From Ostreococcus lucimarinus (taxonomy: Eukaryota), in NCBI GenBank assembly GCA_000092065.1, contig CP000595.1: a stretch of 64,000 nucleotides of DNA. One strand, 5' to 3'. A program made the position numbers and the translations under genes. The notes under the pieces are model-generated. The model was not told where the DNA came from and ran no database searches. It was given only the letters and a program-made list of their open reading frames with translations. Positions within the stretch are counted from its first letter, which is position 1; each line of letters begins with the position of its first letter. Below are positions 1 to 21,700 of the stretch, in pieces.

Positions 1-3000
1 TCACCAGGCTGCCGTCGTCGACTACGCGAATCGCGTACTTCTCTAAAGGATTCTGCCGAACCAACGTGGTCGACGGAAAGAATCCGTAGAGTAATGGCGG
101 CGCCAAATAATAAAGCGTGATCGATGTCCCGTTGTTCAGCAGACCAACCTGATCGAGCGTTGCTGCCGTAATTTCGTCCACCGGTCGTCCAAATCTGTCG
201 ATTGATTTGTACCATCGACCTCTCCTACGCGTCGCCCAATCGCTTTGTGTGACGATCGGTTTCCACGTCAAGAAAAGTCTAAAGTATGGACCAGCGTCGA
301 CGTCGTAAGGCGAAAACGTAATCGGGGTCAAATCTGCATCTCCTAAGTCATCCGCCGCTCGGTCTCTATTCATCACCGCGTTCACCTCCATGTTTGCCAA
401 AAATGGGGGGTCATTCACAGGTCTGATCGTCACGTTGACTGAGGCGGACGCCGCGAGAGTCGAGTCGTAACTGGACACGATAGAGAACTCAATACTGTCG
501 GTCCCGGTGAAATTCGCGCTCGGCGTATAGTTGAAGTACTGAAAATTGAGATTTCCGTCATCAGTGTTGACAGAACAATTCCACCAATACTGCACCTCCA
601 CGTCATTGCACAGCTTTGTCACGGTGCCATTCTGCACGCCCGCATTCGTTACGGTGTAAGTTAAAGTGCCGGCATACTCCGAAGCCATGATCGTTCGCCC
701 GAATCGACCCGTCATTGTCGTATCTTCATCCACCCAATAGTGCGAGACTACGCCGACGGGCTTTCCGGTGGCGGATCCGACGGCTACGACGACGCTGGCC
801 ACGTCGTACAAAGTCGTATCGGGCGTGTTATCCAAACTGTCATCCACACTGTAAATGAAATAATCATACCCAGTAAAATTAATGTCTGGTATATACTCGA
901 ACGTCGACGAATAAGCGACGGGACCGGCCGGAAGCTCGAGGGTTCCGTGCGCCGGCTGTTGACGAATTGTCCACGTGAGTCTGTCGCCGTCGATATCAGT
1001 CGCCGTCATAGGGCGGCTCAACTTGCTGCCCGTCGCGGTCGCATCAACCTGCGTACGCATTGGAATAATATCAGCCGTTGACTCGTAGCTCAATATTTGC
1101 TCACCGCCCGCGGCGACTGGTGCGTCGTTGCGTTTCGCGATATCCACTCGCGCCTCCTTGATATCCGTCGTGCAGCTATTGTCGTACAACGCCAGCACGG
1201 CGGGACTACAATCGACTGTGCCATCGGTGTCGAGACCGAGCGCTTGTGCGACGGTATATTCAACCGTTCCGCGAAAGGTGAATACGTCTACGCCGTTTTC
1301 ATTCGGTTTGGGTTGATACGACACGACGCCGTATCCGGCGTTCATCTCGACTTGGAAAGTAGCCTCGACTGCTTTCCGAGGATCACAGACGGTGAATATG
1401 TTCGCCACAAACGGAATACCCGAGCGACTCGTGAACAAAGGGAGCTCTCGCTGCCAGAGAGGCCCATCTTCGTACGTGTAAAAGTTGACTACGTTTCCGG
1501 ACGAGTTGCTCGTCACCGCCAACTGCGTCGCGTACGTCACCGTAATCGATTCTAATGCTAGTATGTCCGTCGGTATGTGTCCTACTTGATCTGCGCCGAT
1601 GAACGTGGAGTCCGTCCCGAACGTTGCATTCGTGTTCACCGTGTTTTGCGCGTTCAGTAAATCAATCCATGCCGCTGGTGGCGGTGGTGGATACGCAGGC
1701 GACGGCGGCGGGCTGGGTGGCGGTGGGAACGGTGGCGGACTAAAGGGCGTGGGTGATGGTGGCGGCGGTGGTGATGGAATCCCCGAATCATTCTTTCTAT
1801 CCCACGACCAAGTCGACGCACAGAGCGATAACGAAAGTATGAAGAAGAAATACAGGCAGAAGATGATGACGTTGTCGCTGAAGATGTAACGCAAGCGCTT
1901 CAGTGCCTTCTTCTTTGACGTGTACTTGTGCGTCTCATGGTTGCCGCGAAGCTTCAGGTGCACGTGACACGTCTGTGCAACGTTGATTCCATCGCCTAAG
2001 CGCCAACCAGGATCGACGAGACATCCCAAATAGAACAAATCCACGCTGTCCGGATCCGGCTGATGTTTCAAGCGCCGACAAACCATTCGCTTCACCTTTT
2101 GGAAGTTGTCCGTCAACTTGCAAGTCAAGCTAATGGTCTGCATCTCGTTCACGTCATCGATGTTTCGCATGAAAAGTGAATCTCGCAACCGCACGATAGT
2201 GGGCAATCGGACCACCACGGTGCACGTCGGGTCTGGATGTCCTGAAATCGCCGCGATGATCGCGGCCGATAAGTACATGCCTAGGAAAAACAACAGCAAC
2301 CCCAGGAACACCAAAAACCCATCGTCTCTGCTCTCTACCGGACACTTCGTCGTATCCGCTGGCGCTATCACGCATTGTCCGGCGTTCAGCGACCCCGATG
2401 GACATTCAATGTAACTATACGGGCAACAGCCCGTCTTGTTCGTGTTCAACAACGCGTCCGGATAAGGATAACTCACCAAAGATTGCGACAGGCACGAGCA
2501 TGACTCTCCGGCGAACCCTAAATCGCACACACACGTGCCATCTCGCTCGGAGCAATAGCCGTTACCGTTGCAATCCACCGACGGCGAACACGAAAATTTG
2601 CACCGATTGTCCCCGACGCCCACCCATCCTCGATCGCACACGCAATCCTTCGCCGTGGCGTCCCACGTCCCGTGTCCATTACACGCGTCCCGACCGTTGT
2701 TCGTCGTGGTGTTGAACTGGCACAGACTACCCGTGAAGGCATCAGGGCAAATGCACTCCTTGCTCGTCGCCGCGCACACGCCGTTATTCTCGCACCCGCA
2801 CGTTGCGCACCCATCCCCAGTCATCGCCCCCACGCACGTCGGCGTCGGCGCACTGTACGTCCAATTATACGCACACGTTCTACACGGTCCGTTATACACG
2901 CTTCCGCTCATGCACGTCGACGACGCCGCGCACCATCCGCAGCCGTCCGCTTTCGCGCAGTGCTCCGCGTTCCCAATCGCCGCGCACCTCGGATCGCACG

Positions 3001-3439
3001 GTATCTCAATCTCATTCGTCACCGCGTTCACCACTCGCGGCGCGTTCATCACCGGCGGCAAATGCGACACGCACAGCGCGGCGTCGAGCAAGGAGTAGCA
3101 CGTCGGGTTGTGTCCGTCCACGTCGCGCGAGTCGCACCACCCGCACCCGACCTCCTGCACGCACTCCCCGAACACCGCCCGTCGCTGGCACCGCAGCGGG
3201 CTCACGATGCTCTCATCGCTCGCGTTCCACGCCGTGAGCGCGTCGTCGTGCGCCGCCTCGGTCGTTCGCACGCCGAGCGCGCGTCGCGCGTCGCGCGCGC
3301 GCGCGCCCCGAGCGCCCGCGGCTTCGCTTCCCGGCGCGCTCGCGCTCGAGCGCGGGCTCGGCGCGAGCGCGAACAGCGCGAGGGCGACGCGAACGAGCGT
3401 TCGCAATCGCGCGTCGCGCGCGCGATCGCCGACGCGCAT
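1..3439 (-). CDS. 5' part of a very large single-exon gene that continues past window position 1. It has a signal peptide, two PSI (GCGWC) modules, about 8 EGF/laminin-EGF-like Cys repeats, a TM helix, a ~110-aa loop, a second TM helix, a Pro-rich linker, then VNDPP cadherin-like/VCBS-type repeats
   Basis: Manual translation of the minus strand from the ATG at 3439-3437, which follows an in-frame TAA about 60 nt upstream. It reads MRVGDRARDARLRTLVRVALALFALAPSPRSSASAP...VGCGWCDSRD...DGCGWCAASSTC...CENNGVCAATSKECICPDAFTGSLC...CDRGWVGVGDNRCKFSCSPSVDCNGNGYCSERDGTCVCDLGFAGESCSC...FLVFLGLLLFFLGMYLSAAIIAAI...IIFCLYFFFILSLSLCA...SPPPPPSPTPFSPPPFPPPPSPPP...YFNYTPSANFTGTDSIEFSIVSS...RPVNDPPFLANMEVNAVMNRD. 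The frame was checked at several points between 3439 and about 360 and no stop was found. The ORF track omits it because no stop lies inside the window. Confidence 0.6.
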   Translation of the reverse strand, partial: MRVGDRARDARLRTLVRVALALFALAPSPRSSASAPGSEAAGARGARARDARRALGVRTTEAAHDDALTAWNASDESIVSPLRCQRRAVFGECVQEVGCGWCDSRDVDGHNPTCYSLLDAALCVSHLPPVMNAPRVVNAVTNEIEIPCDPRCAAIGNAEHCAKADGCGWCAASSTCMSGSVYNGPCRTCAYNWTYSAPTPTCVGAMTGDGCATCGCENNGVCAATSKECICPDAFTGSLCQFNTTTNNGRDACNGHGTWDATAKDCVCDRGWVGVGDNRCKFSCSPSVDCNGNGYCSERDGTCVCDLGFAGESCSCLSQSLVSYPYPDALLNTNKTGCCPYSYIECPSGSLNAGQCVIAPADTTKCPVESRDDGFLVFLGLLLFFLGMYLSAAIIAAISGHPDPTCTVVVRLPTIVRLRDSLFMRNIDDVNEMQTISLTCKLTDNFQKVKRMVCRRLKHQPDPDSVDLFYLGCLVDPGWRLGDGINVAQTCHVHLKLRGNHETHKYTSKKKALKRLRYIFSDNVIIFCLYFFFILSLSLCASTWSWDRKNDSGIPSPPPPPSPTPFSPPPFPPPPSPPPSPAYPPPPPAAWIDLLNAQNTVNTNATFGTDSTFIGADQVGHIPTDILALESITVTYATQLAVTSNSSGNVVNFYTYEDGPLWQRELPLFTSRSGIPFVANIFTVCDPRKAVEATFQVEMNAGYGVVSYQPKPNENGVDVFTFRGTVEYTVAQALGLDTDGTVDCSPAVLALYDNSCTTDIKEARVDIAKRNDAPVAAGGEQILSYESTADIIPMRTQVDATATGSKLSRPMTATDIDGDRLTWTIRQQPAHGTLELPAGPVAYSSTFEYIPDINFTGYDYFIYSVDDSLDNTPDTTLYDVASVVVAVGSATGKPVGVVSHYWVDEDTTMTGRFGRTIMASEYAGTLTYTVTNAGVQNGTVTKLCNDVEVQYWWNCSVNTDDGNLNFQYFNYTPSANFTGTDSIEFSIVSSYDSTLAASASVNVTIRPVNDPPFLANMEVNAVMNRDRAADDLGDADLTPITFSPYDVDAGPYFRLFLTWKPIVTQSDWATRRRGRWYKSIDRFGRPVDEITAATLDQVGLLNNGTSITLYYLAPPLLYGFFPSTTLVRQNPLEKYAIRVVDDGSLV

Positions 3440-3687
3440 GGCGCCGCGTTCTGCGGTCGACGCATCCGCGGTGCCGTTCAAATCGAGGGTGTTACGCCCT
3501 ATAAATATACGTGATACCTTAAAAACACACACACTACTAGGGTTTAACGCAGACCAAACGTTTATTTCAAACGCGGTCGAACGCGGTCGGCCGCGCGCGC
3601 GCGCGTCGCTCGCACAACTCCGCGCGCGCATCGCCGCGCCCCGAACGCGCGAGCGTCGCGCGACGCGGCGCGATCGGCGCGCGCGCG
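3440..3687. promoter_or_regulatory. Bidirectional promoter between the two giant genes. A TATAAATATA box at 3501-3510 sits in a short AT-rich island flanked by CGCG-rich DNA
   Basis: 248 bp separate the divergent ATGs at 3439 (-) and 3688 (+). The near-palindromic TATA element is about 62 bp upstream of the minus-strand ATG. cgcggtcg is directly repeated at 3573-3590. Confidence 0.45.
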
Positions 3688-3729
3688 ATGTCGACGCGGC
3701 GCGTCGACGCGCGCGCGACGACGACGACG

Positions 3730-3760
<31 letters not shown>

Positions 3761-6700
3761 AGGTGTTGGACGACGCGATGGCGACGGCGACGGCGCCGAC
3801 GCCGACGCGAAGCGCGCGAACGCCGAGCGCGTGGACGCGGACGGCGATGATCGCGATCGCGCTCTTCGCGGCGCTCGGCGGCGCGACGCCGGGCCGCGCG
3901 GCGTTCACGGCGGACGTGTGTTACGGCGCGTCGTGGGAGCCGACGGCGACGGCGACGAAGGCGTCCATAGGGAAAACCGTCAAACCGGTCACCGCGGTGC
4001 CGAAAGAGCACCCGCTGTTCGTGGACGCGTTCGCGAAGGCGTGCTTGGACGTGGGGAACGCGGCGGGGAACACGTCGGCGGCGACGACGGTGCGATTGCC
4101 GAAGCGGACGAACGCGGGGAACGAGACCTATTGGTCGAACGCGGCGGGGGCGTGCGCGACGTCGCCGACGGTGAGCGCGGGACAGTTGTTTTATAATCGA
4201 GCGGAGATGGGATCGACGTTGTCGTACGCGGATTCGAACACGGGACTGGAGAAGGATAAGACGGTTAGGATTGTGTTCGTGAACGACGACGGAAAGGGCG
4301 CGCACGTGGTGGTGTTGGCGGGCGCGAGGGCGGCGACGGGGTCGAGCTCTCCCGAGGTTGGGCTGATGATGGAGGGTGGTTCGTTGAAAAACTCGGCGAA
4401 CGTGGTGATAGAGGAACCTCGGGGATTGACGAACGTGGTGACGAGTGGAAGCGGATGCGACCCGTCGGTTTCGTCGGCGAGCGATTGCTACGAGTTGGAC
4501 ACGGATTTGGGTCTTGGCAAGTTTCGCTGGGGATCGGGATCGGATCAACGCGGTATCGTCATCGGCCACGTCGCCGATGTGAACTCAGAGTTTGCGATGA
4601 AGTTCACGCTGCTCGAACGCATCGATTCGGTGGAGATTGGGTCGTTTGACGACGCGACGTTTGCGATGTCGTGGGAGACGATTCCGACGGCGAGCGCGTT
4701 GAGAGGTTTCAAGATTCGCAGCGCAACTTGCACGAATCACTGCGCTTTGCACGCAACGTGCGCGTCGTGCGCCACGGATGACGCGTGCGGGTACTGCTCG
4801 GCGACGAAGACGTGCACGAAGATTGATGGTTCGTGCTCGAGCGGCTTCGACGTCATCGGCGAGTGCCTCGATACGTGCGGCGCGGCGTTGACGTGCGGCG
4901 AGTGCGCCGATCAGAGCGGATGTGGGTGGTGCCACACCACTGGTCGGTGTACCGCGGCGCAGCTCGACGGTAGTGCTCCGCAAGATGGTAATTGCTCCGC
5001 GTTTAGCGTGGGATCGAGCGCACAGTGCGCCACGTGTCCGGGCGCCGTCACCTCAACTATGTTGCCCGCTTACGTAGATGTCGACCGCGTCAGCGCGTTT
5101 TGCAACGGCAGGGGGACGTGTGATAACATCACGCGCACGTGTACGTGCTCGAGCGGTTACGGTGGAGACGGATGCGAGAAGATGTGCCCCGGCGGCGCGA
5201 GCAATCCGTGCTCGAGAAACGGTTTATGCGACTCGGCGTCGGGAAGTTGCTTCTGTAATCCTGGCTACGTCGGCTCGCGATGTAACGCCGCCACGATAGT
5301 CGGGACGTGCGAATGTGGCTCAGCGCACACATACTTGAAGTCGGACGGCACGCAGCAGCGCGTGTGCTCTGGTCGTCTCGATTCGAGCGGCTCGTGCGTG
5401 TGCCTCGAGGGATGGTCGGGTGTAAACTGCACCGTCGCGTGCGCCGGCACCTTGACCGTCGGCACCGAGGTGTGTGGTGGACACGGTACGTGCAATGTTG
5501 GAACCGGTCAGTGCGATTGTGAGCCGTGTTATTCGCGGGACGCCACTTCAGGGCTTTGCGTGCAAGACACTTGCTCAACGTGCGACTCTAGCAATGGAGT
5601 GTGTTCGTGCGTGAGCGGAAGTATGCAATGCGCCTGTCGGGGCGCCTTCGATGGGTACGCGTGCGATCAGTGCAAGTGTGGCGACCACGGTCGTTGCAAC
5701 GCACTCTCGGGCGAGTGCGAGTGCGACGCAGGATACGCTGGCGAGCTCTGTGAGCGACTCATTGAGCCGCAGCCGACGTGCGCCAACGGCGGCACCTGGA
5801 ACGCGGCCCTCAAGCGATGCGAGTGCGCGGGCGGATACACGGGCACTCTTTGCGATGCAGCGTGCACGACGAACCCGTGTAATGATCTTTGCAGTGGGCA
5901 TGGTACCGTGAACGTCGATGGGACCTCGTGTACGTGTTTCACTGGATTCTCGGGGAGCACTTGCAACACTTGCGCCACAGGCTACGGCCCGTATCCCAAG
6001 TGCGGCGCGACGCTTGCAAACGGAGAATGTACAGATAATATCGTAGCTTACACTGGGACCACAAACGTGACGATTTCGGGCAAACAGTGCCAGTCGTGGT
6101 CGTCCCAATCGCCGTTCGCGCACACGTACGCGTCGTCTTCGGGATCGACGAGCAATGAGTGTCGTAATCCGTCGTCTGACGCGCACCCGTGGTGCTACGT
6201 CGATCACACCGCCATCACCGGGTCGTACACCCGAGGCGAACCTCGATGGGAGTTTTGTTCAGTACCGACGTGTAAGTCGGCATACGTCAACCCACAGAAG
6301 ATTTGTGGCGTTTTCGGTGGTGAAACAGTCGTGACGTTTGACAAGGACTCCACCTCGGGAGCGCTCAACGCTGTCAGCCAACAGGCGCTGACGACGACGA
6401 ACGACGCAGTGGACAAGACGAACTGTGGCGCAATGAATCTGACTAATAACGATATCACCTTGCACGCGAACGCCGCGGCGCATGGAGACTTTGTCGCTCG
6501 GTTCGCCGAAGACTCCGGCACGGGTTATGCGAGACGCATCATCACGCACATCGGTCTCAAAGCATCCGTTTCGCCGGCGCACGATAGCGTCGAAGTGCAC
6601 GCCGATGGCACCGTGAAAGTCAACAGTGTTACCAAAACGAATGATCTGCCATACTCCGACGGCTCCACTGGTGTTTTGTGCGTGTCTGACTGGATGCCCG

Positions 6701-9700
6701 TGAGCTCGGGCTTGGCGAGCACGGAGCTTTTACAAATAACGATTTCAGAGACGACGGTGGCAAACATCACCAAGTTTACCGCTTGCACGGGATGCGCGGC
6801 GCAGCTCATCGTGGTCATAAGTGTCCCAAATAGTGTTACATCGACAGGCATATGCGCCACGGCGGGCTCGGCGACCAGCGTAAACTTCGACGAGAACGCA
6901 GAAGGAAGCGCGCCGTGGGGCGTCGGCGCGGCGCTCAACGCCGCTTGCGGGACCGACACGCACGACCCTGGTAGCGTCTCAACGGTGCAAGCGAAGTGGT
7001 GCGACCAGTGCCAGTATCTGGGTGAAGTGTACGATTCGTGCGTCGCTCAGATGGCGAACGAAGGGTTCAACTTTGCCCGCGCCGCCGTAATAGAGGGCTG
7101 TCGCATGGCGTTTGTGGCAATCTACGGATACGACCGCACGATTCCCTCATATCTCACGGCGACGGCGTCGACGGGCGCCACATTAGCGGACACCGTGTAC
7201 CCGTATAGAAGCTACACTCCGTCTGATGTGCAGTTTAAGTCACTCTCCGACAATCGCTTAGCTTTTGACGTGCTAGACGTCACGGAAACCTTGCCGGAAT
7301 ACATCGTCGGTACGACGAGAACGGATGGGTCGCGCACGCGAATGACTGGTTTGCCACGAGAGTTTACAGGCGAGACCGATACGACGCAAGTGTTCCCGTT
7401 CCCTAGAATTGAAGACTCGTGCAGAACCGCGAGTGATATAGGATCAACATCTGGGTATCGCGTGTACACTATGAATTACGCTTCGGCGACGGATGAAGCT
7501 CTGGAGATTACGATGTGCGGCTCCGCCACGGGAACCAACGTGGGCGTCTACACAAAAGACTTTGTAGACATCCCGTCGGCGGATTGGACGCACAATACTA
7601 CAAGTGCGAATGGGAATATCACTTTCACATTCACCCCGTGGATCGATGGCTTGGCCACGTATGAGGCTCGTTTCGAGTACTCTTTGGCGTCCACCAAGAA
7701 AAACGTGACGTTTGACGTCACTCGCACCTCTGCAAACGTCAACATTGGCTCGTTTGAATTCTACCCGCCGACGGCGTCGGATTCGTACGGCTCTGTTGGC
7801 TTTGAGTTTAGCGTTCCCAGTGCGGAAGCCGCCGCCACGGTTTCGTTCACAATGTCACCCACTGGCACTGGTGACTCAACGGCGGCGAACTCTGCGTTTA
7901 TCTCGCTTACCGCGGTTTTCATTCACGCGAAGAACTACGCGCAAGCGAGTTTGAATTACCCGCCATTCGGTGGGTTCAAGCAAGTCTCGTGCGCCAACTT
8001 CCAAGCGGCATCCTGTGGGTCGCTGAAGTTCACGGCGACGCAAAAGACATATTACATCGTCGTCTCTGGACAAAAATTCGTCTCGGGGGCGTACAGCATG
8101 CAAATAAAAAAGTTGAGCGCGGATTTGACAACCGTGTACACGGTGAGCAGCAACGCAGCGACGTCTTTGGTGAGGCCGTTGACGGGATTGGATGGCGCAG
8201 CCGATGGCACGTTGACGCCGTACAAGGTGGCAAAGTATGGCGATAATATTCGCGTCGTCGTGCGCGCGTCGCACGCAATAGATAGACCAAGAATCACGTT
8301 GGGCAATTACGCGGTTCCGAGCTCGAAGATTGTCTCTGCAGGTGCCGGCGCGGAGTATTCAGCGACGGTGACCGTCAGCGCTAGCATGGCGACTTCTGGA
8401 CACATCACGGTAAAGGTTGAGCAGGCGAGTACGCTCACCTCAGCATCGTATGGGTTTAAGACGTCCACTCATCCGTTGGGTTCTGACATCGCGCTCGTCG
8501 TGTTGGACAACACCGCGCCTACTGTCAGTCACGCCTGGGTCGTCAATCCATCCTACATGCTCGCGCCGTCGTCGGCGCCATCGTCCTGTACGAATCTTAC
8601 GACGTCCACGGGTAAGGATGTAAACGTTACGGCGGCAAAGTACGCAAAAGCGGGAGATTACATCGCCGTCATCTTTACGCCGTCGGAAAACGTCGCCACC
8701 ATCGGCGGTACCATCGGCGGTCAAGCTGCGACGAAATGGGTGCGAGCAACCGCGCCGCGCGACGTCACGCTCGCGATCGATGCTTATAAAATCACGATGT
8801 CCGCGGCCTACGTCGATGCCGCGTACGCGCTCGTCAATGACATCACACTCAGCGATGGAGTTTTACCGTTTTCCATTACGTTTACGGACGCCGTTGGCAA
8901 CGTCGGGACGACAATTAACTCGGCGATCAACTCCCTGACCGGTGTCACCGCGAGTTCACCTTTGGCCGATCGACTCAGCGCCGCTCGATTATTGTATGAT
9001 AAGTCACCACCGCGACCGGACTCATGGTCACTGAGGTACGCTAGTTCTTCGGAGATGACTGGGAACCAAGGTTCCAAGCCAGTGTATTATCACGGCTTTG
9101 ACAACGTGGCCTCGAGCGCCAAAGAGTATCGCATCGGTGACACGCTCGTATTAACTGGCACTTGGACCGAATATGTCTCTCGTCCGTACGGCGCGTACAT
9201 GCGCTCGAGCGCTTCAAGTGGCGTGCACGTTCCGCAATCAGCCATTACGATCACGGAGCAAGGCGGAAAACTCACCGGCAAGTTGGAGTGCATGGCGAAG
9301 GAGTTCCGTCCGCGAGCGCAAGAAGCCGTGAGCACCGCGCAAGGTTTCGGTGGAACCAGTTACGTGACATCGACATATCACAAATCATGGAAAGTGGAAG
9401 CGAACACGATCGATCCATGTGATATCGTCGGTAAAGGTGCGTTGGCGTGGAGCGCTCGCGCGGATTGCCAAGCGGAGCACTACGCCGGGAACTCGTTGTG
9501 GATTCCTCTCTGGTCTGCGTGGTGTCGTCACGGTTGGGGTACCTTGGGTTACGCCGTACTCGGAGGCGTCGACCCCGCTGGTAATTCGGCGACGGCGTTG
9601 CGCCAAGTGAGCAAATCTCCGAACAACGCCGACGCTACAGTTGTGATTGCCTCGTCCGCGGTGGCGGGCGACGCGATTATTCGCACGCCGATTCCCATCG

Positions 9701-12700
9701 CCGGGAAGATTGTGCCAAGCTGGATGAACTCAGTCCCTAGAGGTGACTGGACCGCAGACCCGAAGGTGATTGAAGTGTACATCGAGCCGCAAAACGTGAG
9801 ATGGAACGAGTATAGGCGCGTCGTCAAGGTTGGCGACATGCTGCAGATTCAATTCTACACTGACCAACCGGTGAAGGGCGTGCGCGCGCTCATCGGAGAC
9901 GATAAAGCCCTTCCGCCTGCGACACATTCCGAAGTCGCGAGCGCCATGAACGTCGAGCGACCGTGCTCAAGCGATCCGGACATGCAAACTTGGCTCGGCG
10001 CGCGCGGCTTGCTCGCGCTCGCCGCCGAAGAGTACAACGACGGATCGCAGTTTTCGAACGACGACGATTGGTTCGATTGGTTGGTTCAGACGTCTTACAA
10101 CTATCGCCAACCCGTGCCCAATGTGCCGAATTACCCCAACGCCGCTGTTACGTGCACTGGATTCTGGGTCCAACGCGGGTTACGACCCAACGGTAAGCGT
10201 TATTCGGTGCGCCGTTTGTGCCCGAATAGGTACTACTTGCGACGAAGCTCGTTCGCCGCTCAGGCGCCGCTTACGTGCTCGGATCCAAATGATCGAATCT
10301 ACAAAGCCACAGACGCGTACAACTATTGGGTGATCAACTTTAGATACGTCACATCGCATCAAGTCGTCAATGGCGACGGAGCGCTTCAAATCAAGTGGCA
10401 GTTGACCACGATGGACGACCGCGTGTTGCCGACGGGTGGCGGTTGGCAGACCTCTGCAGCCTTCTTCACCTCTGCGGACACCTCTGCGGATGTCAATCAT
10501 CTCAAACCAACGTCAACTGATGCCGTCGGCGCTGCGTTTGATCCCGCGATTAGCTGCGGGCGCAACGCGGATACCGCGTTCAATCAAGCCGGGTCGGCAG
10601 TCTGGGCCGTCCAAGATACGCTGGCGCCTTCGTGCGCGAGCTTTGTCACGGATGGTTCGTGCGCGAGCACGACTGTCGCCCGTGTCGCTAACAGTAGCGG
10701 TACGACGTTCCCCACCGTCACGAATCCGGCGACCAATGTCGCCGAGCACGTGGCCGTCGTTGGTGATTATATCACGCTCATCATCACTTTTGACGAGCAT
10801 ATTGCAGCTGGAGTGTACGTGACTTTGAACGACGGGGTTCTCACCGCTCGAGCGACGAAAGTTGACAAGTACTCGGCGACGTTCACCTTTGAGGTGACGC
10901 AGACGCTCGCGGCTCTGAATACGTTTTTGGAGTACAAAGTGTACAATCTGAAGGATATTCAGGAAGCGAACACGGCGACGGCGACGTTTACGACGAACGT
11001 CTTCAACGCTGAAAAGATTCGGTTGCAAAGCGCGAGCGAATTGACGGCGTTTTCGCTCACCAATGGCGCGTGCTCAACCACTAGTAACAACGTGAATAAT
11101 CAGTACGCCAAAAATGGGAATACAGTCAACGTCTCAGTGACGCTGCCGCTGCCACCGAGTAGCGCCAACACCGTGCTGACCATCCACGAATCCAAACTTG
11201 CGGGCGTCTACGTCACGCCGCCGACGCCCACATGCGTGGGTACACCGAATGCGTGCACGATAACCATGGCGCGTACGGTTGACAGTCTCTCAGCGGACTT
11301 CGTCGATGGTAGCGTCGTGTCTTGGTCACTGGTGGTTATCGGTACGACCAAGTGTGCGCACCACGCTTCAAGCTTGTGCATCACACGCTTCAAGCTCACG
11401 TCGTGTCGCCCGACGTTTGCGTCTGAAGTCGTCTTGGATTTTACGCCGCCGTCTCTGACTTCGGTGCGTTTGAGCGAGCCTGTCACCTCAGCCTCGCTCG
11501 TCAATGGCACTGGTCAAGTGAAAGTTGACGTCGTATCGAGCGAACAATTGTATACGCTGACGTACACATTGGATACGCGAGGCCCCCTGTGCACGTACGA
11601 CTTTGGCATGGTCTCCGCCCAGTCGATGACGTTGACGACGGATGGTACTCTCACGGGTACGCACACAAAAACCATCACCGCCACGTATAACTCCGCATCG
11701 CTTCATTGCGTGCTCGAAGTCATCTGTATCACGTTTGTCGGCGAAGATATGGCTGGACACAAGCTCACGAATCCGACGACGTGTCGAAGCTTTTCTCCGA
11801 CGGATTCCGAAGACTATCCAGGATGGTTCATGCTTCACAACGTCGGCACGGGCCCAAGTTCTGTCTCGCTCGCCCGACCTCTCGGGTTACACTGCATGGA
11901 TAGTTCCGTGGACACGCAGGCATGCGCTAACAGCGCAAGCGTGACTTCGACGACGCTCGAGTACGGGAATTATCTCGCTCTCGACGTGTCGTCGGGGTAC
12001 CCTATCGGCATTACTGACATTTCCGTGGACGGCCATTCCGTCTACGCGGCGACTGGCTTTGGCTCGTCTACGTTCCAAAATGATAACGCGTGGACGATCG
12101 ATTGCTCTGATTTGGTTCGCGACGACTTGTGCGTGCGCTTTGCCACGAGCGCGACGTGCCAGGCGTACTTATGCCCGACGTGCCAGTACGCCGGTATGTG
12201 TGACTTTTCGTGCGGCTACTGCGATAGCCGTCGAGCCTTCTCGAAAACTCACAAACTAACGCTGAAGACGACCGATTTCGGATTACCCGCGACCGATTTC
12301 ACTAACGAAGTCGTCACAGTTTCGTATCGAACGAATCCGGCGATTGCGCCGGCGGCGACGATGAACTCGACGGATACTCTTACGTACACGGCGCCCACGA
12401 CGAGTTCGTGTGCTGGTCGATGTGGAGGTACAGCGCCATCTGGCTGCGAATGCAACCCGACTTGCAAATCTCGGGGCACGTGCTGCGCTGATGCCGGCCA
12501 CTGTTGTACCGTCGGTTTGCCGTCCACAGGCGCTCTCAACGTCGACGGTGGATGTCTTCGACCAAACGCCGTGACGCTCAGCGTCACCAAAGAGTCTTGG
12601 GGGGTGGACACGAAAGGCGTGCGAAAATCTAACGTTAACCGATACTCCACGATTTACATTAAACTGACTGGAAACAAGCCGATTGACGTGCGACGTGTGC

Positions 12701-15700
12701 TCATCGGTGGCGTCCTTGTTCCAGATTCGGACGTCGCCATCGAGTACAACTCGCAGACGTCCGCGCGACAGTCTCTCAACGAAGCGCTCGTGGCGTACGG
12801 CAACGGCAATGATGCTCAGTTCACGTCGAAGAGTGCAGCGTTCGCGGGGAGTCTAGCGACCCTCCCAAGCGCTGCCTATTCGTGGGATGGCAATGAGTTT
12901 TCAATAGCGTTCCCGGACATTCCAAGTACGCTCGTCGCCACCATTCGCGTCAACGGCGCAAACCTGGTTCCGCAACCTGACGGCGCGTTGACGTATGAGG
13001 TAGTGTACCGCGAACGTTCGGGTGCGCCTTACTTTACGGACAACACCGAGCTCACCCTCACCGGAACTGGTCCGACGTGGTTGAATCCGCCGTCCATCTC
13101 AAGTGTCTCTTACGTTCTCTTGAACAGCAGCTCGACCTGCGACTTGTCCACTCCGGGCACACCGGTGACCGCGGCAGGCAACGGTTTGACAAAGATTGAA
13201 ATCGGTCATCAACTCCGAACCGTAGTGACGTTCAGTTCGCCGGTCGTCGTTCGCAAGTGGACCGTGGAAGGTGCGGAAACAAATTGCTACGGCACGTGTC
13301 ATCTCCACGGATTGTGCAAACTTGACCCGCACATTTTGCCGCCCGACGAACACGATGAAGCTGAATACATCACCACCTGGACGAGCTGCCGTACTTTCGA
13401 TGCCAAAGAAATGACCACACTCGAGAATCTTGAATGTGGTGTTCGCGAATTCATTCGCGCCGTCGACAGGTCAGGTAACCTCGTCATGGGTGAGCGATGG
13501 AACAACTTGTATTGCTTCACATTGCCGCCGGCGATTCCGAGTCAAGGTTTGATAAAAGTACGCGGTCTAACGTCTTGCTACCGAAGTACGACGACGAAAA
13601 AGTTTGGCCCAGGTTGTATCGCTACCATCCACATCGAAGCCGACGGCGAAATCATGGAGCCAACGGTGAAGTGGTGGAACACAGCGACCAACGCGTACGC
13701 AAACTTTCCTTCTGCGTGCGTCATGACGGCGACGGATCCGACGTCTCCAAGCTCGTTGGTTTGGACACTCACATGTGCGGGTACAGCCGCGGCGACATTC
13801 CCACCCAGTAACTCTTACACGTTACAGCTTGAAGTCAGCGACGTGCGAGCCACGGACGAGTCAACCTTTACGGGCACGGCGCGAGACACGGACGACGGAT
13901 ACCTAGGCTCAGACAAGGACCCGATCATCGTCGATAACCTCGCACCCACGCCGACTGCCACTGTCCCGCTTTCGTGTGCGTTAGTCATAGGAAGCCAATC
14001 TACGATAACCGTCACGTATGCGGTGGAACCATCATGGCGCCCGACTGTGAGCGCGTTTGGCGCGCAGGTTGGCGGCGTCATTGCGCAAACCGGCGCGTTG
14101 AGCGGATTTCACACCGTTTGGATTGCACCGATCACAGTCCCCTCCGACTGGTTAGGCGGTAGCCCGATGCCTTTCGTGATTACGAACGGCGAGGATGAGT
14201 ACGGCAACATCGACACGACGTCGCACGGGAACTACTTGTCCAATGACAACGTGCTCACTGGGGATGTGAATTGTTCAGTGAATGTCGATGCGCCGCGAGT
14301 CACGTCTGCGACGTGCGCTAGCCCGTCACCGAGGGTCGTCAAACCAGGCGGAAGTGTGACGGTTGATTTCTCCACCAATGTTGCAGTGACGATTCCGTCG
14401 GGTTGCGTCAAGATTTCCGGTGTCACGGTGACGCCCACGGATCTGGGAGGCTCGAAAAAGAGCTGGAGAGCCACGGCGACCATTCCGTCAGACCCCCCCG
14501 CTTGCGACGGCGAAGTCGCTCTCAGCATCTGTGCTGAAATCACCGATACCGGAAATAACACCGGCGTTGAAGTAGTAACGCAGTTTTTTGGCCCCGAAAG
14601 CGAAGCTTGTCTCATCGACGGCACAGCGCCGGTGCTACAGTTGATTGATTTCACCAGCGACAACACGTACGATTCAAAACTGGCCACCGTCGGTGACACT
14701 GTTCGACTGTACTTTGAAGCGAGCGAAATGATCACCGCGCCTACAATTACGCTATTCGCGACCGCAACGCCGTCTGCAACGGCGGTTGAAACATCGGGAC
14801 CGAGTCGTCGACGATTCCCATCGACGGTGCTTAATGCAGGAGGAACGCAGTACGCGACAATATGGACGGCTGAATACGTCGTCGACGGGACCACGCCGGT
14901 AGGCGCGCTCACATGGGATGCGACTGGATTCATGGATCGCGCGACGAATGATGGCACTAAAAGTGCGTGCGCGGATTGGAACCCGCCATCTTGTTCAATC
15001 GTGCACGCTGCGCAGACGACTGCGCAACGAGCTCTCGAACCAAGTATCAACTTTGTCGGCGACGTCGTTCAAACGTTCAACAACTTTTTGACGACGTCAC
15101 CGAGCGGTAACGTGTCCACACTGTTTTCGTGCTACGCCAACTCATCATCGACATCGCTGTCGGCGTTAAATCTGGCAATCTTGAAGACAGATTTGTCGCG
15201 GCACGATATCGTCGCTGGTGGGATATTCCAACATCATCTCATGACGGCTCAAGATTTGTGGTGGCAACGCGGTGGCGCGTGTGGCACCGCCAATGGTCTC
15301 ATGTGTCGGTCGACATGCGGACGGTGTAACGATGCCGCCGTCGTGGTACACCGCACGACAACCACGCTCACTGTTGCAAACGTCACCGCCGGTGGTACCG
15401 CCATTCCGGGAGACCAATGTCCAGGAGGTGTGGGTACGTGCATGTGCAACCCAACGCTCGGCGATCAATCCGAAGCCCGCTATATCGTGAGCACCTCGGC
15501 CCGCGATCTTGTCTCGAAACCAACCATCAGATTTAACGACACTAGCGGCACGGTGTATACCGTACCCGAGGCCAACATCGTGGCGGTGAGTCCTGTCATG
15601 TGGCCCACGCTCCCGACGGTGGATTGTCTGTCCGAATCGACGGTGCGCGACGGCGTCTGCGACCCATCCGCCACGTTGAACAATCGCGACGGATGCTGGG

Positions 15701-18700
15701 ACGGTGGCGATTGCTGCCAAGACACGTGCCGGCAAGTCTTTAGTGACGGCGCATATTGCCAGGCGCAAGATTGCCGGGATCACTCAATCTCACCAGTGAC
15801 AGGGCGACCGACATCTGGGTTCTGGAGCTCGTACAACGCCAAGGCGCTCGTCGCTCGGGAACTCTCTGTGGAGTGGAAGGTGACGTTTCCAGTAGATGAC
15901 ACTCTTCCGTTGATTGATGGCGTTCTCACCGGTACCGCGTGCTGCATGCAAGACAAGAGCGGCTTGGACGTGTTGCACGCAAATAAGGGTACATTCGTCG
16001 CGGGTGCGCCGTGCCTGGACGCTGTCTTGACTCGCGACACGAGCTGTTTGCTTCGCGCCGCGCTTACGGCGGACAACGGCGAATTCGTCGTCAAGGAAAA
16101 CCAGCCCGTATCGCTTACGCTCGAATTTGAAGGGAACCCTCGCGGGATGAATTGCACAATCGGCGGCGAATCGGTGACGATGACGCAGACACGCGCCGCG
16201 AGCTCTGGCGTCACCGCGCTGTGGTCAACCACACGGACTTCGGTGAATGCAGTCGACACCGCGATTGCGACGCGCATTGCGGCGTCTGAGGAGCAGAAGC
16301 GACGTCACGAACTTTTGCCCGAGGTTTTCGAATTAAATCTGTGGGCGAATTGTTCACGAGGCGTCACGATTCCGTTTGAGTGTTCCATTTCGGATTGCGG
16401 TGGCAACTTGTTTGAGATTACCGACGCCGTCGACCCGACTTCAGATGTGTGCTTTGACTACGTGCGCCCGGACGCGACCAGCATTGGGCAGACGAGTTCG
16501 AACACGTGCAGCAACGCATACGCCAAAGTTGGCGATACGCTGATACTCAACGTTACGATGGATGCGGACGTTTCCAATCCCACTGCGTACACCCTCGCTG
16601 GCGAAGCGTGCACGTTGAGAACTTTCGGTACGAATGCGTTTACGTGTGACGTCGTCGTGTCGTCGACGACGATTGAAGGACCCGCAAACTTCACGTTTGA
16701 CGGCATCAAAAGCTCTGTGCCCGCGTATCTCGACGCCGTCAACACGAGCTACACTGAACTGAAGACGTTATCTCCAGATGGCGTCGTCACGCTCGGTGGG
16801 GATCGCGTCATCATCGATCGGACTGCGCCGACTTTTGACTCTTTGGCGATGTACAGCCTCGAAGTCGCTAACAAGACGTGTCAGAAGCGGTGTACCGTTC
16901 GCGTCGCCATCGACGCCGCGGAAGAGTTGAGTAGCTGCACGGCAACTATCGGTGGCATCACTGCAAACATCACCGGCACGGGCTCCGAACGCGTGGCGGA
17001 GGCGTACATTGATGAGAACAGTGGTATAGCGGCGGGCGAGATTACCTTCTCCGTCATCTGCCTGGATCTCGCGTGCAACTCGGTGACGACATCGACGCTC
17101 GTTGGTGATACGGACGCCGTGATTTATTCTTTAGACCGGGACATTCCATTGGAAGTCTTGTTCTACAGCGATCGACCGGGGCACTTGGAAATTGGGAACG
17201 AAAACGACTGTCTCATGATGGAGATGAGGTTTCTTCTCGCCGTCGAACTGAAAGCCATCGTCATGGGCAATATTACGAACAACGCATTGAGTCTGTGGAA
17301 CATCACCACAACCGGTGGCGCCTTGGTAGTCCCGGGTACGACCCACACCTATTATCTCATCACTCACTGCATCACGGATGCGTGGGGTACGGAGGACTGG
17401 CCAGTCGTTCCTTGGAGTTTTACGTACGACGATGGATTGCAAGACGTTGTGTGGAACACGACTTTTACGTCTGACGTAAACTTTCCGCGAGTGGTCCGAC
17501 TCGATTTGGAAGACCCAGTCGCGACGTACGTCTACGCCTTCACCACTGGCGCTAATGATCCATCGGCTGGTCTCGGCGACGCGCTGTACTTGGATATCAT
17601 CGCCAGCGAAGCAGTTGTGGCGCCGACGGTGACGTTTGGCGGCGTAACGCTCAACGCCACCGATGTCTCGCAAGTGGGTACGTCTAGCGAGTGGCGCGCG
17701 GGTCCCTACATCGTGAAGAATTCGACGGATGACCCGAACATTCTGAAGGATATCAACGATTGTTTCTTATTCAGCGTGACGCTGAAGGACTTAGTCGATC
17801 ACACATCCATATTGTACTCGCAGCAAGTCAACGCCACGGGCTCGCTCAATTGCGTCACGCAACGCGTTGACATTGATCAAGATGCGCCCACCATCGTTTG
17901 GTTGCAAACTGAGTACGTCACCGCTACCACCGTAGACTTTACCTTTGCCGTAGACGAACTCTCCAACGTCAGCTACGTCGTCTTGCCGAGAGGTGCGGTG
18001 GAGCCGACGCCTTTGGAAGTTCAAGCAGGCACCGGAGCAGCGGGTACTGGCGCTGTGGCCAGCGGTGTTAAGGAATATCTTGGATCATCCACGCCTTCTC
18101 CGGGAGCTGGTGCGGGTGGCAAGGGCCAAGATGTGTTAAACATCACTGGTCTTCTCGCGGGTACGAACTACGACGTATGGTTCGTGCCTTTCGATCGATT
18201 CGGCAACTCCCAAACCGAGGCGCAAAGTCGATGGATACGAACCGTTGGGTTGGACATGCTCATCAACTCGCTTGCGACGCAAGAGGGCGGTTACACGGAT
18301 GTCATTCAGGTGAAGCTCACGCAAGTCCCGACCGCAGATGTTTCGGTGACGATCAGTGAACGCAGTGGTATCGGGAACGTCGTCCTCGTTGATCAGGCGC
18401 TGAGTCTTACGGATTACGTCTCCTCGGTGACGCTAGTCTTCACGCCCATCACGTGGAACGTAGCGCAAGAAGTCGGTGTCAAGGCGGTTGATGACATTTA
18501 TGTCGAAGATCAACACACAGAAGAGTTGAAGTTTGACGTACGATCGCTTGATGTACGCTATGACGCGCTCGTCGATCCAAACCGTACGGTCGTCATCGCA
18601 GATAACGACGAGTGTGGCGTCATCGTGTATGACCCCAACAATCGACCCTTGGAGCGCACTCTCTCGTGCAGCGCGAATGCAGTGATCGCTTTGTTGAACT

Positions 18701-21700
18701 ATTCCGTCGCTGAAGATACGACGGTATACGCAGATATCTACTTGCAAGCGGCGGTGCGAGGCGATGACGTGCGCGTGACGCTGACGAGCTCTGATTTGAC
18801 GCAAATTTCATCTCCAGCGTCCGTCACTCTGACGTTCAACGAAACCAACTACAATTTGGCGCAACGTGTCCCAATCATTCCGGTGTATTCGTGCGTCGCC
18901 GCGCTTGATCGCTACGTTCCGATCGCAGTGAGCGTAGAATCCGCGACGACGTGCGGCGATCTCGTCGTACCAGAAATTCCTGTGTACGTGACAGATTTGC
19001 AAAAGGTTGGATTAGCGTTTACCAAGGCGCAAATCACCGGCCCCCCCGGGAGCAACTACGAGTTTGACATGTATTTAACGTCTCAACCGACATCAGACGT
19101 TCAAGTGTCCTTAGCAACGCTACCAGACGCTTTCGGAGCCGACTTGTACGGCAGCGCGTCGTTCAATTGCGGTGCCCAAGGTCCTGTTTGGACGTTTAGT
19201 GCTGATGAGTGCTCGGTGCCGGTGACTTGCATCGTCACGCTCGTCGGCGACGACACCAAGTGCGGAGATGTGACGTTGCAAGTTGGCGCCAAAGTCACTT
19301 CCTTGGATTCAATGTACAACGGCATCTCGAGTTCGCCGCCGAATATGACCATCCTCGAAACCGCCAACGCCGCGGGATGGTACATTCGAAATGCTGACAA
19401 CACAGAATTCATCGTGACGCCGCCAGATGCGCCAAACGGCACGTTGCCGCTCGAACCGTGGAAGGTGAATGAACAGATTGAAACGGGTATTTACACCATC
19501 ACACCGACTACGGCGTTGTGCAAAACAGTGACCCTTCGACCGTATATTCCAGACACAGATTACGCTCGATACGCCACCATCTCTCCGAGACAGGTGACAC
19601 TTGAGGCTGGATTCTTTGGTCCGACGAAGTTCAAAGTCATCTTCCCGCGTAACTACAACGTGCCCGTGACGAACGACATCGTTCAAATTTGGCACGATGT
19701 GGTGTACGGCACTGATGATCCGGATTACCTCGCATTGAGCCCGAATCTCGGTGGTAGTGCCCTGCCGGTCGAAATCGTCGAGTACGACGTCGCCGGTTTA
19801 TTGCTCGGCAACGGCGCGGAGAACACTGTTCTCATCGATGAGCCGTGCTCGACAGATGTGACGACACAGGTCTCATCTTTGGGATTCACGCTGTCAAGTG
19901 CACCCTCTGCAACTGTCGTCGTTTCGCTCAGCGAAATGAATTACAACGCGACTCAACTCGCGATTCTGAAGGCGAATAAACACCTTGTGTTGGGGACAAC
20001 GTCGCTGAGTTTTACGCCCAACAATTGGAACATTCCGCAGCCGGTGATGGTCTCCGCCATCAGCTATGACAACCTGACGGAAGCCCGCACGGCATATGTA
20101 TGTGGAGATATGACTTCAGATGATGATGTGTATCAAGCACTGAATCAAACGTGCTACCCCGTGCATATTTGTGATTGCTCCGGTTCATGCGGTCTCATCT
20201 CGTTTGATGATCACGCGAATTGTACTTTCGCCGCTGACCAATTAAACAACACGGAGATAACGTTCCCGCCTAGTATGAAGCAACTTTCATCTTGTTGGAA
20301 CATCAGTGCCACCTGTGGCGGTATTCAGGTCGCGAGTTTAAGCGCTGCCGGTCACGATCCGGTCATGACGAACTTTACGACGCTGCCAGATTCTGAAGCG
20401 TACTCGGTGAGTTTGGACAAAGTACAACGGTTATTTTACACCACGCAGTGGTCTGTCATCGATAAACTCGAGCTACCGCTATCGCTAATCGATGGTGGTA
20501 TGCAAGGCTTGACGGACGCTTCTGGTACCTATTGCCTCGGTATCTCATCATCGAGCTTTGTCGTCAACAACACAGCCAATGGTGGCTTGTTTGTTGAAAA
20601 GGCCGCCCCGATGAGCGCCTTTGCGAATTCTTTCGAAATCCTCCCGGCAGCGGCGAATACATTTGATTCGGACGTGTACATCCTTGAGGTGAGAGTTCTT
20701 GCCGGTGCATCGCCGTTGACTGATTCGTATTCGCTCAATTGCACGGATGGAGGCAACTTCTCTGCACCAGGCGGATGTATCATCGGTCCCAGTCTTCGAG
20801 GGTATTTCAATAACGCAACGCAAGTCATGACGTTCACGAACACGGCATATCTCCCGGAAGCAGATTTGGCCAACGCAGCTGGTAGAAAATTACTTGGAAA
20901 GTACCCATACCCATCACAACGCCGTCGCCTGTTGCAGGCACCGGCTGCACCGGCTCCTGCATCGACTTCTCAATTTGTGTGGGCTGTGAACAACATAACG
21001 TTTTCGGACATCAGTCTAGATCCCACCGGTGCGACGCGAATGATGAACACTCGAGTGGTGGATCAGTTCGGGGCCATCGTCGAAGGACCAATTCTAAATA
21101 TCGATACCGAAGGTGTGAACGATCCACCGATTATCGATATCGACTTGCCGCTCATTTACACAGAGAAAGAGAGTCTGACGCTCAACGCACCGCTTCAAGC
21201 CTATGACGTTGACAATTATAATTGGACGCAGTGTGTCGTGAACATCACGGATATCGCAAACAACTTCATGGCTGGAGATACATTCTCGTATAACAAAACG
21301 GCAATCGTCGAATACTATCAGTATTGGAACACATCTTTGCCAGCCGGTTTCGTGGACATTGACGCCACGTTCACCGACTCTCAGCGTACAGTGACTTTCG
21401 CCGGCCTGGCGCCGCCGGCGGCGTACTTGCGTGCGATGCGAAACCTGGTGCTGTTGAATGCTGGACCGGCAATGACAGCGGATGATCGATACATCATGTT
21501 CTGCTGTCAAGATCCGGAAGCGCTCAACAACAAAGGGTGCGGTTTGCAACGTGTTGTGTTCCAACCCGTCAACGACCCCCCGCTAGCTGAGAACAAGATT
21601 GTGTATCTTGCTGATCCTCGCGTCGGAGGGTTAACCGGTGAAACTGTTCCAGGATCAGATCCTGATGGCGATACGTTCACGTTCAATATTTCATGCTTAC

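Follow-up and report, generated by a model that had tools for sequence, protein, structure and literature searches.

A 64,000-nucleotide stretch of Ostreococcus lucimarinus DNA (contig CP000595.1 of assembly GCA_000092065.1; hereafter the window, numbered from its first letter) carries on its plus strand an uninterrupted open reading frame (ORF) of 7,684 codons plus a stop, encoding a giant protein with a kringle domain toward its N-terminus. Ostreococcus is the smallest free-living eukaryote, with a genome of 13 Mb. We regard the kringle as real with near certainty, and we favor, with moderate confidence, the reading that it is a genuine, folded, disulfide-bonded domain acting as a binding module of a giant surface receptor for contact or ligands, built on a membrane core of the type found in the CRMPs of apicomplexans and ciliates. 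The first-pass annotation of the window, made from the letters alone, had singled out the kringle and missed the context that gives it its meaning, namely an ORF of this size with a CRMP-like core and a voltage sensor.

The kringle is encoded at positions 6028-6273 (+) as an 82-residue peptide with six cysteines, CTDNIVAYTGTTNVTISGKQCQSWSSQSPFAHTYASSSGSTSNECRNPSSDAHPWCYVDHTAITGSYTRGEPRWEFCSVPTC, whose translation contains the motifs Y-T-G, C-Q-S-W, CRNP, PWCY and RWEFC. Pfam Kringle (PF00051) matches it over profile positions 7-79 of 79 with a score of 51.1 bits (E 1.7e-13) against a curated gathering cut-off of 34.3 bits, and the domain scores 50.5 bits when the protein is sliced differently. 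A phmmer search of PDB sequences matched 90 kringle chains, the best single kringle being plasminogen K2 (1i5k; 55 bits, E 5e-14), and each of plasminogen K1-K5 aligns with the Ostreococcus kringle cysteine for cysteine. In an alignment with 23 database kringles, C781, C801, C825, C836, C857 and C862 fall in Cys columns that are invariant or at least 90% conserved; Y14, G16, W30, C-R-N-P and W-C likewise occupy invariant or nearly invariant columns, and the sequence departs from the kringle pattern only in having nine extra residues between Cys4 and Cys5. From these 24 sequences AlphaFold2 gave a model of moderate confidence (predicted local distance difference test [pLDDT] 71.9), and a Foldseek search of PDB with this model returned only kringles among its best 50 matches, led by plasminogen K2 (1i5k_B; E 3.7e-7, target TM-score 0.77, 39% identity). 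The initial claim of a canonical kringle is thus borne out by the Pfam score, the cysteine alignment and the predicted fold; the two tests set for it beforehand, a significant Pfam match and a cysteine pattern that maps onto the three kringle disulfides, both gave the expected result, the latter in the 24-sequence alignment and on plasminogen K1-K5. The domain includes an N793-V-T sequon, and a search of the whole 64-kb window found no second kringle.

A comparison with the animal kringles of plasminogen, apolipoprotein(a), HGF, prothrombin and ROR1/2 shows a close likeness in the domain itself and marked differences in its setting. Shared features include a length of about 80 residues, six cysteines at the 1-6, 2-4 and 3-5 positions, the motifs Y-x-G, C-Q-x-W, CRNP, PWCY and RWE[YF]C, and the fold predicted above. 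In the phmmer alignment, and in plasminogen K4 numbering, the plasminogen-type groove residues W25, D57, W62, Y64, R71, W72 and F74 are present, with D57, W62, Y64, R71 and W72 in common with the animal domains. In contrast, the algal kringle has the insertion between Cys4 and Cys5, and it has S55 and Y35 in place of Asp55 and Lys/Arg35, so that five of the seven residues of the classical lysine-binding site (positions 55, 57, 35, 71, 62, 64 and 72) are retained and the lysine-binding dipole is incomplete. A full lysine-binding site defines a subset of kringles and not the family, and many bona fide kringles do without it. The domain therefore probably binds a ligand in the groove usual for kringles, whereas classical lysine specificity is doubtful on account of the residues at positions 55 and 35. 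Also unlike its animal counterparts, the domain has no linked serine protease, kinase or further kringles and lies inside a giant multi-pass membrane protein of a green alga. A plasminogen-like protease was considered and rejected, as the ORF contains no trypsin domain.

The order of parts in the giant protein (Table 1) was derived from Pfam scans of the whole protein and of 700-residue slices, from hydropathy and from PDB searches, and we consider this predicted architecture very likely to be correct. Translation may in fact begin at Met31 (nt 3778) or at Met54 (nt 3847), the latter being the first residue of the probable signal segment. A tract of ten arginines precedes that segment (positions 3730-3759 (+), aa 15-24), and three to four of its codons are deleted in all environmental haplotypes. 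The cysteine-rich array behind it has a density of 10-19 Cys per 100 residues and matches EGF_Teneurin (36.9 bits, four stretches), EGF_2 and EGF_TEN, with the EGF array placed at aa 470-780. Near the opposite end of the ectodomain, Ephrin_rec_like scores 43.7 bits at aa 6548-6615 and TNFR_ELAPOR1_6th was also matched. Within the membrane core lies a charged, coiled-coil cytoplasmic loop (aa ~6850-6975), and hydropathy detected no membrane segment in the C-terminal tail. The kringle would lie outside the cell, because it follows an N-terminal hydrophobic segment, sits among cysteine modules of secreted type, is part of a region with 28 N-x-S/T sequons in the first 4,333 residues, and precedes by a wide margin the first strong membrane helix, which is found only at aa 6742. 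We infer a place near the outer tip of the molecule, about 780 residues from the N-terminus and roughly 6,000 from the membrane.

Table 1. Features of the giant ORF and its divergent neighbor in the window.
Feature	Positions	Strand	Basis
5' part of CRMP-like paralogue, running off the window	1..3439	-	Open frame 3904->2, start at nt 3439
Spacer between the divergent start codons, 248 bp	3440..3687	.	Coordinates
Giant kringle-bearing protein, 7,684 codons plus stop, uninterrupted	3688..26742	+	ORF list, translation
Probable signal peptide or anchor MIAIALFAALGGATPGRAAF, aa 54-75, after an Arg-rich tract	3847..3912	+	Read from the translation (inference)
Cys-rich array: PSI-like segments, then ~8 EGF/teneurin-type EGF repeats, aa ~345-780	4720..6027	+	Pfam, Cys density
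Kringle, aa 781-862, six Cys	6028..6273	+	Pfam, alignment, AlphaFold2/Foldseek
Cys-poor ectodomain stalk, ~5,000 residues	6274..21555	+	No Pfam family match apart from the somatomedin-B-like knot
Somatomedin-B-like eight-Cys module, aa 2907-2941	12406..12510	+	Pfam below cut-off; PDB matches to somatomedin-B domains
Cadherin-like/Big_9 Ig modules, aa 5957-6040 and 6208-6303	21556..22596	+	Cadherin_4 35.1 bits; Big_9 25.3 and 25.0 bits
Ephrin-receptor-like/TNFR-like Cys repeats, aa ~6530-6740, ending in the juxtamembrane motif C-x2-C-x2-DHY-RY-x3-C-x-AC	23275..23907	+	Pfam
Multi-pass membrane core, ~9 helices, aa ~6741-7225	23908..25362	+	Hydropathy; AlphaFold2 helices (low confidence)
Stand-alone voltage-sensor domain S1-S4, aa 7267-7389	25486..25854	+	Pfam Ion_trans, PDB
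Cytoplasmic C-terminal tail, 295 residues, aa 7390-7684, helical and charged	25855..26739	+	Translation, hydropathy

A second small cysteine module, resembling somatomedin-B (SMB) domains, shares the ORF with the kringle. Its cysteine spacing, C-x3-C-x7-C-x-C-x3-C-x5-CC-x5-C, preserves the eight-Cys knot, and PDB searches matched it to the SMB domains of SUSD2 (2cqw; E 2.7e-6) and ENDOU (9ftw; E 1.8e-6) and, more weakly, to ENPP2 and vitronectin. Pfam PF01033 gives it 21.3 bits, 1.8 below the cut-off of 23.1, and 17.5 bits in a 700-residue slice. The SMB domain proposed at 12409-12507 in the first-pass annotation was thus supported by its cysteine pattern and its SUSD2 and ENDOU matches and fell short at the Pfam cut-off; we accept it as a knot of SMB type. 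It resembles the domains of vitronectin, ENPP1-3, SUSD2 and ENDOU in its knot and its significant pairwise matches, and differs from them in its sub-threshold profile score, in an extra ninth cysteine and in standing as a lone copy midway along a long stalk. No Pfam family was found in 700-residue slices of that stalk, nor internal repeats by self-BLAST at 1e-4. The motif D-x-[TL]-[AP]-P, followed by [TSV], occurs in it 10 times against 1.5 expected by shuffling. The stalk probably consists of successive divergent beta-sandwich modules, with D-x-[TL]-[AP]-P marking where one gives way to the next. The longer form of the motif, D-x-[TL]-[AP]-P-[TSV], resembles the start of bacterial Ig-like adhesin modules.

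The membrane core appears to place the protein alongside the CRMPs. Apicomplexan and ciliate CRMPs are very large proteins with EGF and ephrin-receptor-like cysteine repeats and nine membrane helices, their N-terminus outside and their C-terminus cytosolic, and a kringle is present in TgCRMPA and PfCRMP1 (PMC9670195, PMC9815656). In these papers the CRMPs are described as a central complex required for rhoptry exocytosis and invasion, with the membrane regions of TgCRMPA and TgCRMPB modelled together (PMC9670195, PMC9815656); the Nd proteins that partner them are described as alveolate-restricted (PMC9670195). A direct BLASTP comparison of the algal C-terminus with TgCRMPB (~7,900 residues, from S1 Table of PMC9815656) matched only a juxtamembrane motif (E 0.006), which in both proteins reads C-x2-C-x2-D-[HY]-x(1-3)-RY-x2-C-x-AC and is followed by helix 1. 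Relatives that extend through the algal membrane helices were found in the database (P0013, P0026, P0030, P0035 and P0023, the last from the amoebozoan Ceratiomyxa), and a seven-member family profile free of CRMPs scored 47.4 bits against TgCRMPB, or 23.6 bits with the membrane core alone, compared to at most 3.3 bits for 298 window-shuffled control sequences. Profile-profile alignment with hhalign of O. lucimarinus plus its orthologue against TgCRMPB plus two intermediates gave a probability of 98% (E 2.6e-13) over 366 collinear columns, with reversed and block-shuffled controls scoring at most 23 at a probability below 1%; the seven-member profile against TgCRMPB alone gave 96.6% (E 6e-10). 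These comparisons support homology of the algal and CRMP cores at the superfamily level, through intermediates, and not orthology. Retrieved members come from Amoebozoa, malawimonads, volvocine algae and alveolates and thus span a broad range of eukaryotes, and the giant protein appears to belong to a wide superfamily of cysteine-repeat proteins with a multi-pass core whose studied members are the apicomplexan and ciliate CRMPs. Our literature search found no paper linking CRMPs with green algae, or a kringle with Ostreococcus or Micromonas.

Set beside TgCRMPA/B, PfCRMP1-4 and the Tetrahymena CRMPs, the algal protein is alike in its great size and predicted external N-terminus, in a large N-terminal ectodomain with EGF and ephrin-receptor-like repeats, the latter directly before a core of about nine helices, and in the juxtamembrane cysteine motif and the collinear core, probably a remote homologue, that follows it. 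As with CRMPA and PfCRMP1, the kringle lies in the ectodomain of one paralogue, here the giant. Two paralogues are present in each case: TgCRMPA and TgCRMPB are reported as the core of one complex, as a paper's title and its joint model of the two membrane regions imply, and the algal pair presumably has a common promoter region. The differences are that direct pairwise similarity to TgCRMPB is marginal, that the algal stalk lacks MAR and lectin modules, that the kringle follows the EGF array and is not beside a MAR domain, and that the algal protein ends in a voltage sensor, which is not reported for CRMPs. Polycystin-1, sea-urchin REJ proteins and adhesion G-protein-coupled receptors (GPCRs) are functional analogs only. 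Like the algal protein, they place a giant mosaic ectodomain of adhesion type on a multi-pass C-terminal region, and the ectodomains of adhesion GPCRs can include kringles (PMC12716839); unlike them, it lacks their defining domains and has a membrane core of another family. Membership in the polycystins or adhesion GPCRs was rejected, as whole-protein and sliced Pfam scans gave no GPS/GAIN, REJ, PLAT, PKD_channel or 7tm match.

The C-terminal voltage sensor was recognized by Pfam Ion_trans (PF00520; 52.3 bits), which covers only profile positions 1-112 of 241. In PDB it comes closest to the sensors of repeats I and III in Cav2.3, Cav2.2 and Cav3.x (independent E-values 4-5e-12), with which a pre-S1 segment and the S2 F-x-x-E...K and S3 N-x-x-D-F motifs align. 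S4 reads R-x2-R-x2-K-x2-R-x2-K, with Arg or Lys at every third position five times, and these charges are kept in a second Ostreococcus species in which the sensor is 57% identical. No S5-P-S6 pore module was found after S4: the Ion_trans match stops at position 112 of 241 and nothing hydrophobic follows beyond aa 7390, so the domain has no pore. According to hydropathy and a low-confidence AlphaFold2 model, the odd number of preceding helices (~9) would orient S1 correctly from inside to outside. The pore-less sensors Hv1, Ci-VSP/TPTE and TMEM266 share with it S1-S4, a regular series of S4 Arg/Lys, the S2 Phe/Glu and S3 Asp, the absence of S5-pore-S6 and a cytoplasmic helical tail after S4. 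It differs from these in being closest to Cav repeats I and III, with no Hv1 or VSP among its PDB matches at E <= 0.01, in lying behind about nine further helices and a 6,700-residue ectodomain, and in having no phosphatase or other enzyme domain after it.

Upstream of the giant gene, and transcribed away from it, is the 5' part of a paralogue. In the environmental contig L006 the paralogue frame (1-7660 -) is open for at least 2,553 residues and encodes, in order, a signal segment, PSI/EGF modules, cadherin-like/Big_9 modules (Big_9 41.1 bits, Cadherin_4 36.2 bits), ephrin-receptor-like repeats, a CRMP-like membrane core and a long tail. The membrane-core profile scores 59 bits against this copy, and BLASTP aligns it with aa 6542-6840 of the giant at 24% identity (E 9e-19). 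It has neither a kringle nor a voltage sensor. The short spacer between the two genes is presumed to be a common bidirectional promoter, and the divergent arrangement suggests co-regulation; by analogy, the algal pair may parallel the pairing of CRMPA and CRMPB.

Public annotation has so far captured only fragments of this gene. A 172-residue NCBI protein of O. lucimarinus CCE9901 ("predicted protein, partial") shows 100% identity with parts of the EGF region. This model (P0002, window ~5200-6020 +) joins non-adjacent pieces across invented introns. It terminates just upstream of the kringle, and it is because this fragmentary spliced model stops there that the kringle is missing from public annotation. 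The full ORF, in three start variants, is not in a collection of 15 billion proteins, and word-indexed protein searches with the kringle region and the mid-ectodomain returned only fragments at the level of O. lucimarinus itself and no orthologous kringle. Judged by these searches and by the HMMER scan described below, the kringle-bearing product is absent from the collections of proteins that we searched. The locus itself is well represented in nature, on eight JGI metagenome contigs (L005-L012; 99.2-99.5% nucleotide identity) and on one ENA long-read contig (L001) with the same neighbors. In all eight JGI contigs the frame is open as far as the contig reaches, at most 4,383 codons, indels change the length by whole codons only, and the kringle is identical apart from I785S/N. 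An orthologue from another Ostreococcus species (L002, 82-12910) is collinear over aa 3445-7682, the kringle lying outside the part covered; a metagenome scan returned only haplotypes that are 96-99% identical and no kringle region of a second species.

The algal identity of the host, asserted in the first-pass annotation, is confirmed by the perfect match to the CCE9901 protein and by flanking genes of plant and algal type: the window also encodes glucan-water dikinase, ACR-type ACT proteins, an AP mu subunit, ZIP transporters and GOST, and the downstream neighbors also follow the orthologue in another Ostreococcus assembly. Contamination was rejected given these neighbors and the same locus in environmental contigs. 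Within 30 kb there are two paralogous Pyr_redox_2 genes (32638-35238 (+) and 40209-42356 (+)) and two ZIP transporter genes (36287-37918 (-) and 59679-63032 (-)). Local GC reaches 0.69-0.71 at 32-34 kb and 40-42 kb compared to 0.50-0.56 inside the giant ORF, along which the GC content of third codon positions (GC3) falls steadily from 0.70 in the first 2,000 codons to 0.61 in the last 1,700, with overall GC declining too.

Different parts of the giant protein evolve at different rates. Identity to the orthologue is 69% in the membrane core and adjoining cysteine repeats, 60-72% in the C-terminal tail, about 53% at aa 4600-5900 and 30-33% at aa 3550-4700, making the stalk the fastest-evolving part. 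Within the species, we compared the reference with the environmental haplotypes L005-L012 over aa 1-4333 (3688-16686). Over these 4,333 codons there are about 13.5 synonymous and 61.5 nonsynonymous differences, giving a ratio of nonsynonymous to synonymous polymorphism (pN/pS) of 1.5-2.0. Replacements are concentrated on N-glycosylation sequons: the sequon Asn is replaced in 10 of 28 cases compared to 3-6 of 176 other Asn (Fisher p 1e-7 to 2e-6), and the sequon Ser/Thr is lost in 4 of 28 compared to 6-10 of about 900 other Ser/Thr. In this unpolarized comparison, with a culture strain as reference, the environmental haplotypes lack 11-12 reference sequons and have 0-5 new ones elsewhere. The kringle core is spared, the sole replacement in the domain, at residue 785, lying outside it. 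This turnover of sequons is consistent with a recognition surface that is exposed and glycosylated and that experiences diversifying pressure, and the combination of fast ectodomain divergence and sequon swaps would fit antagonistic or mating-type selection.

The first-pass annotation also stated that kringles are rare outside animals. That was overstated, as Kringle was classed as a pan-eukaryotic domain by Itoh et al. 2007 (PMC2394772), and kringles occur in CRMPA and PfCRMP1, in diatoms and in marine metatranscriptomes. When 1.84 billion cluster representatives were scanned exhaustively with HMMER, 2,850 kringle proteins were retrieved, and among the best 150 of these, which were ranked by summed score and are mostly multi-kringle animal proteins, making the ranking poor for taxonomy, no match is more than 49% identical to the Ostreococcus kringle. 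The best single-domain matches (52-59 bits, 42-48% identity) come from mixed sources, including a Tara metatranscriptome protein (P0151), a seven-kringle protein of the diatom Seminavis robusta (P0040), fish, bird, tunicate and mollusc proteins, and environmental kringle-trypsin proteins (P0180, P0169). The last two are from low-GC intronless contigs and have an enlarged Cys4-Cys5 loop ending G-E-P-x-W-E, as in the Ostreococcus kringle. P0180 corresponds to intronless genes for two kringles and a trypsin on short, 37%-GC ENA metagenome contigs (L003, 3050-4564; L004, 2789-4303), and its first kringle, with a G-E-P-x-W-E-[YF]-C loop, is the best single-domain match of all (59 bits). The TgCRMPA kringle is 36% identical over 50 residues only. 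A bootstrapped neighbor-joining tree of 47 kringles gave no stable sister to the algal domain (54% for one sequence, about 35% for the environmental kringle-trypsin proteins) and singled out no donor lineage. In GC and GC3 the kringle (0.569 and 0.659) matches its host ORF (0.556 and 0.647), and recent transfer is therefore not indicated. The first-pass annotation offered two origins, ancient sharing or horizontal acquisition. The tree does not decide between them; recent transfer finds no support in composition, and an ancient origin combined with domain shuffling would be the more economical account.

How such a protein might work can be sketched from its best-studied relatives, and we offer the mechanism tentatively, at somewhat below even odds. 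The two paralogues would form a surface complex, as in the case of Toxoplasma CRMPA and CRMPB; the distal EGF, kringle and SMB modules would bind an external partner; the membrane core would relay the binding event to the cytoplasm; and the fused voltage sensor might make this relay depend on, or report to, the membrane potential. Several points weigh against the receptor reading as a whole. Every functional assignment in it is made by analogy. The link to CRMPs depends on amoebozoan and environmental eukaryote intermediates, because a profile made from Ostreococcus alone reached only E 0.04 against TgCRMPB alone, with nothing significant beyond the juxtamembrane motif. All other superfamily members retrieved lack both the kringle and the voltage sensor (PF00520), and kringle and CRMP core may therefore have been brought together independently by domain shuffling. 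A nine-row alignment gave a poor AlphaFold2 model of core plus sensor (pLDDT 52.5, below 40 in the sensor). The pN/pS ratio is not significantly greater than 1 and could reflect relaxed constraint. Ostreococcus is not known to have a rhoptry- or mucocyst-like extrusive organelle and, the Nd proteins being described as restricted to alveolates, the downstream output in the alga would therefore differ from that in the parasites.

Other explanations have to be weighed against the same evidence. That the kringle is an artefact, whether a chance cysteine pattern, animal contamination or mis-assembly, has a negligible probability: its sole hint is the absence of the domain from public annotation, against a Pfam E-value of 1.7e-13 and the same sequence with the same neighbors in eight environmental contigs and one long-read assembly. 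Recent transfer of an animal or animal-derived kringle exon into the algal gene would make the likeness to plasminogen a matter of recent shared ancestry and would account for vertebrate plasminogen kringles being the best-scoring solved structures and for the many animal proteins among the top database matches. We nonetheless consider it very unlikely, as no database kringle among the best 150 of 2,850 exceeds 49% identity, sequences from diatoms, environmental protists and organisms of no known identity score as high as animal ones, the neighbor-joining bootstrap gives no animal sister, and the composition of the domain is that of the surrounding ORF. The kringle is moreover in frame within a 23-kb intronless ORF, and kringles are found in apicomplexan members of the same superfamily.

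The two remaining alternatives concern the role of the kringle and of the protein that carries it. The protein may be a drifting, mucin-like coat protein whose domains are not individually selected, with the kringle a decaying or structural spacer that has no binding role; this would agree with the within-species pN/pS of ~1.5-2, which is not significantly different from 1, with an ectodomain only ~30% identical between Ostreococcus species and with the incomplete lysine-binding site (S55, Y35). It appears improbable to us in view of the single within-population change in the kringle, which falls outside the core and leaves the six cysteines, CRNP, PWCY and RWEFC intact, and of replacements elsewhere that are not random and are concentrated about 20-fold on sequon positions. 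There are also no stops or frameshifts in the eight contigs, and the Pfam score is well over its cut-off. Alternatively, the protein could be an accessory of an ion channel or voltage sensor, in the style of polycystin-1 or of the auxiliary subunits of Cav channels, with the ectodomain a mechanical tether or an antenna for flow or contact and CRMP-type signaling irrelevant. A genuine Cav-like S1-S4 with five S4 charges kept between species speaks for this, and a giant modular ectodomain on a multi-pass C-terminus recalls, from general knowledge, polycystin-1 and REJ proteins. Pfam, however, finds no S5-P-S6, PKD_channel, GPS/GAIN, REJ or PLAT in the ORF, and the helices that precede the sensor align with the family that includes the CRMPs and with no channel family, so that we judge an accessory role to be unlikely. 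A CRMP-type receptor that uses the kringle as a binding module remains our preferred reading.

A bolder combination of these elements can be envisaged, to which we attach only a small probability. The divergent gene pair would be the green-algal counterpart of the CRMPA/CRMPB contact-sensing complex, a receptor type ancestral to eukaryotes and not invented in alveolates, and through the fused Cav-derived sensor, binding by the distal kringle, EGF and SMB modules and the membrane potential would gate one another. The turnover of N-glycan sites would then mark the 6,700-residue ectodomain as an arms-race interface, such as an attachment target of prasinoviruses, or as a gamete-recognition molecule; to our knowledge, a sexual cycle has never been observed in Ostreococcus.

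In conclusion, kringles outside animals were known already, and the kringle taken alone is one more of these and modest news; its context matters more. What appears to be new is a CRMP-type receptor with an unreported voltage-sensor fusion that public annotation does not contain, for which an alga with so small a genome devotes 23 kb of its 13 Mb to one overlooked surface protein. None of the studied members shows a receptor of this kind joined covalently to a pore-less Cav-type sensor, and through this fusion a coupling of receptor to membrane potential would become directly testable. The link of green algae to CRMPs, which the literature treats as alveolate-specific triggers of invasion, suggests an older and more general family of eukaryotic contact sensors. 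For the ecology of picophytoplankton, the replacement of sequons within the species provides a concrete candidate surface determinant of interactions between Ostreococcus and its viruses or of mating interactions.

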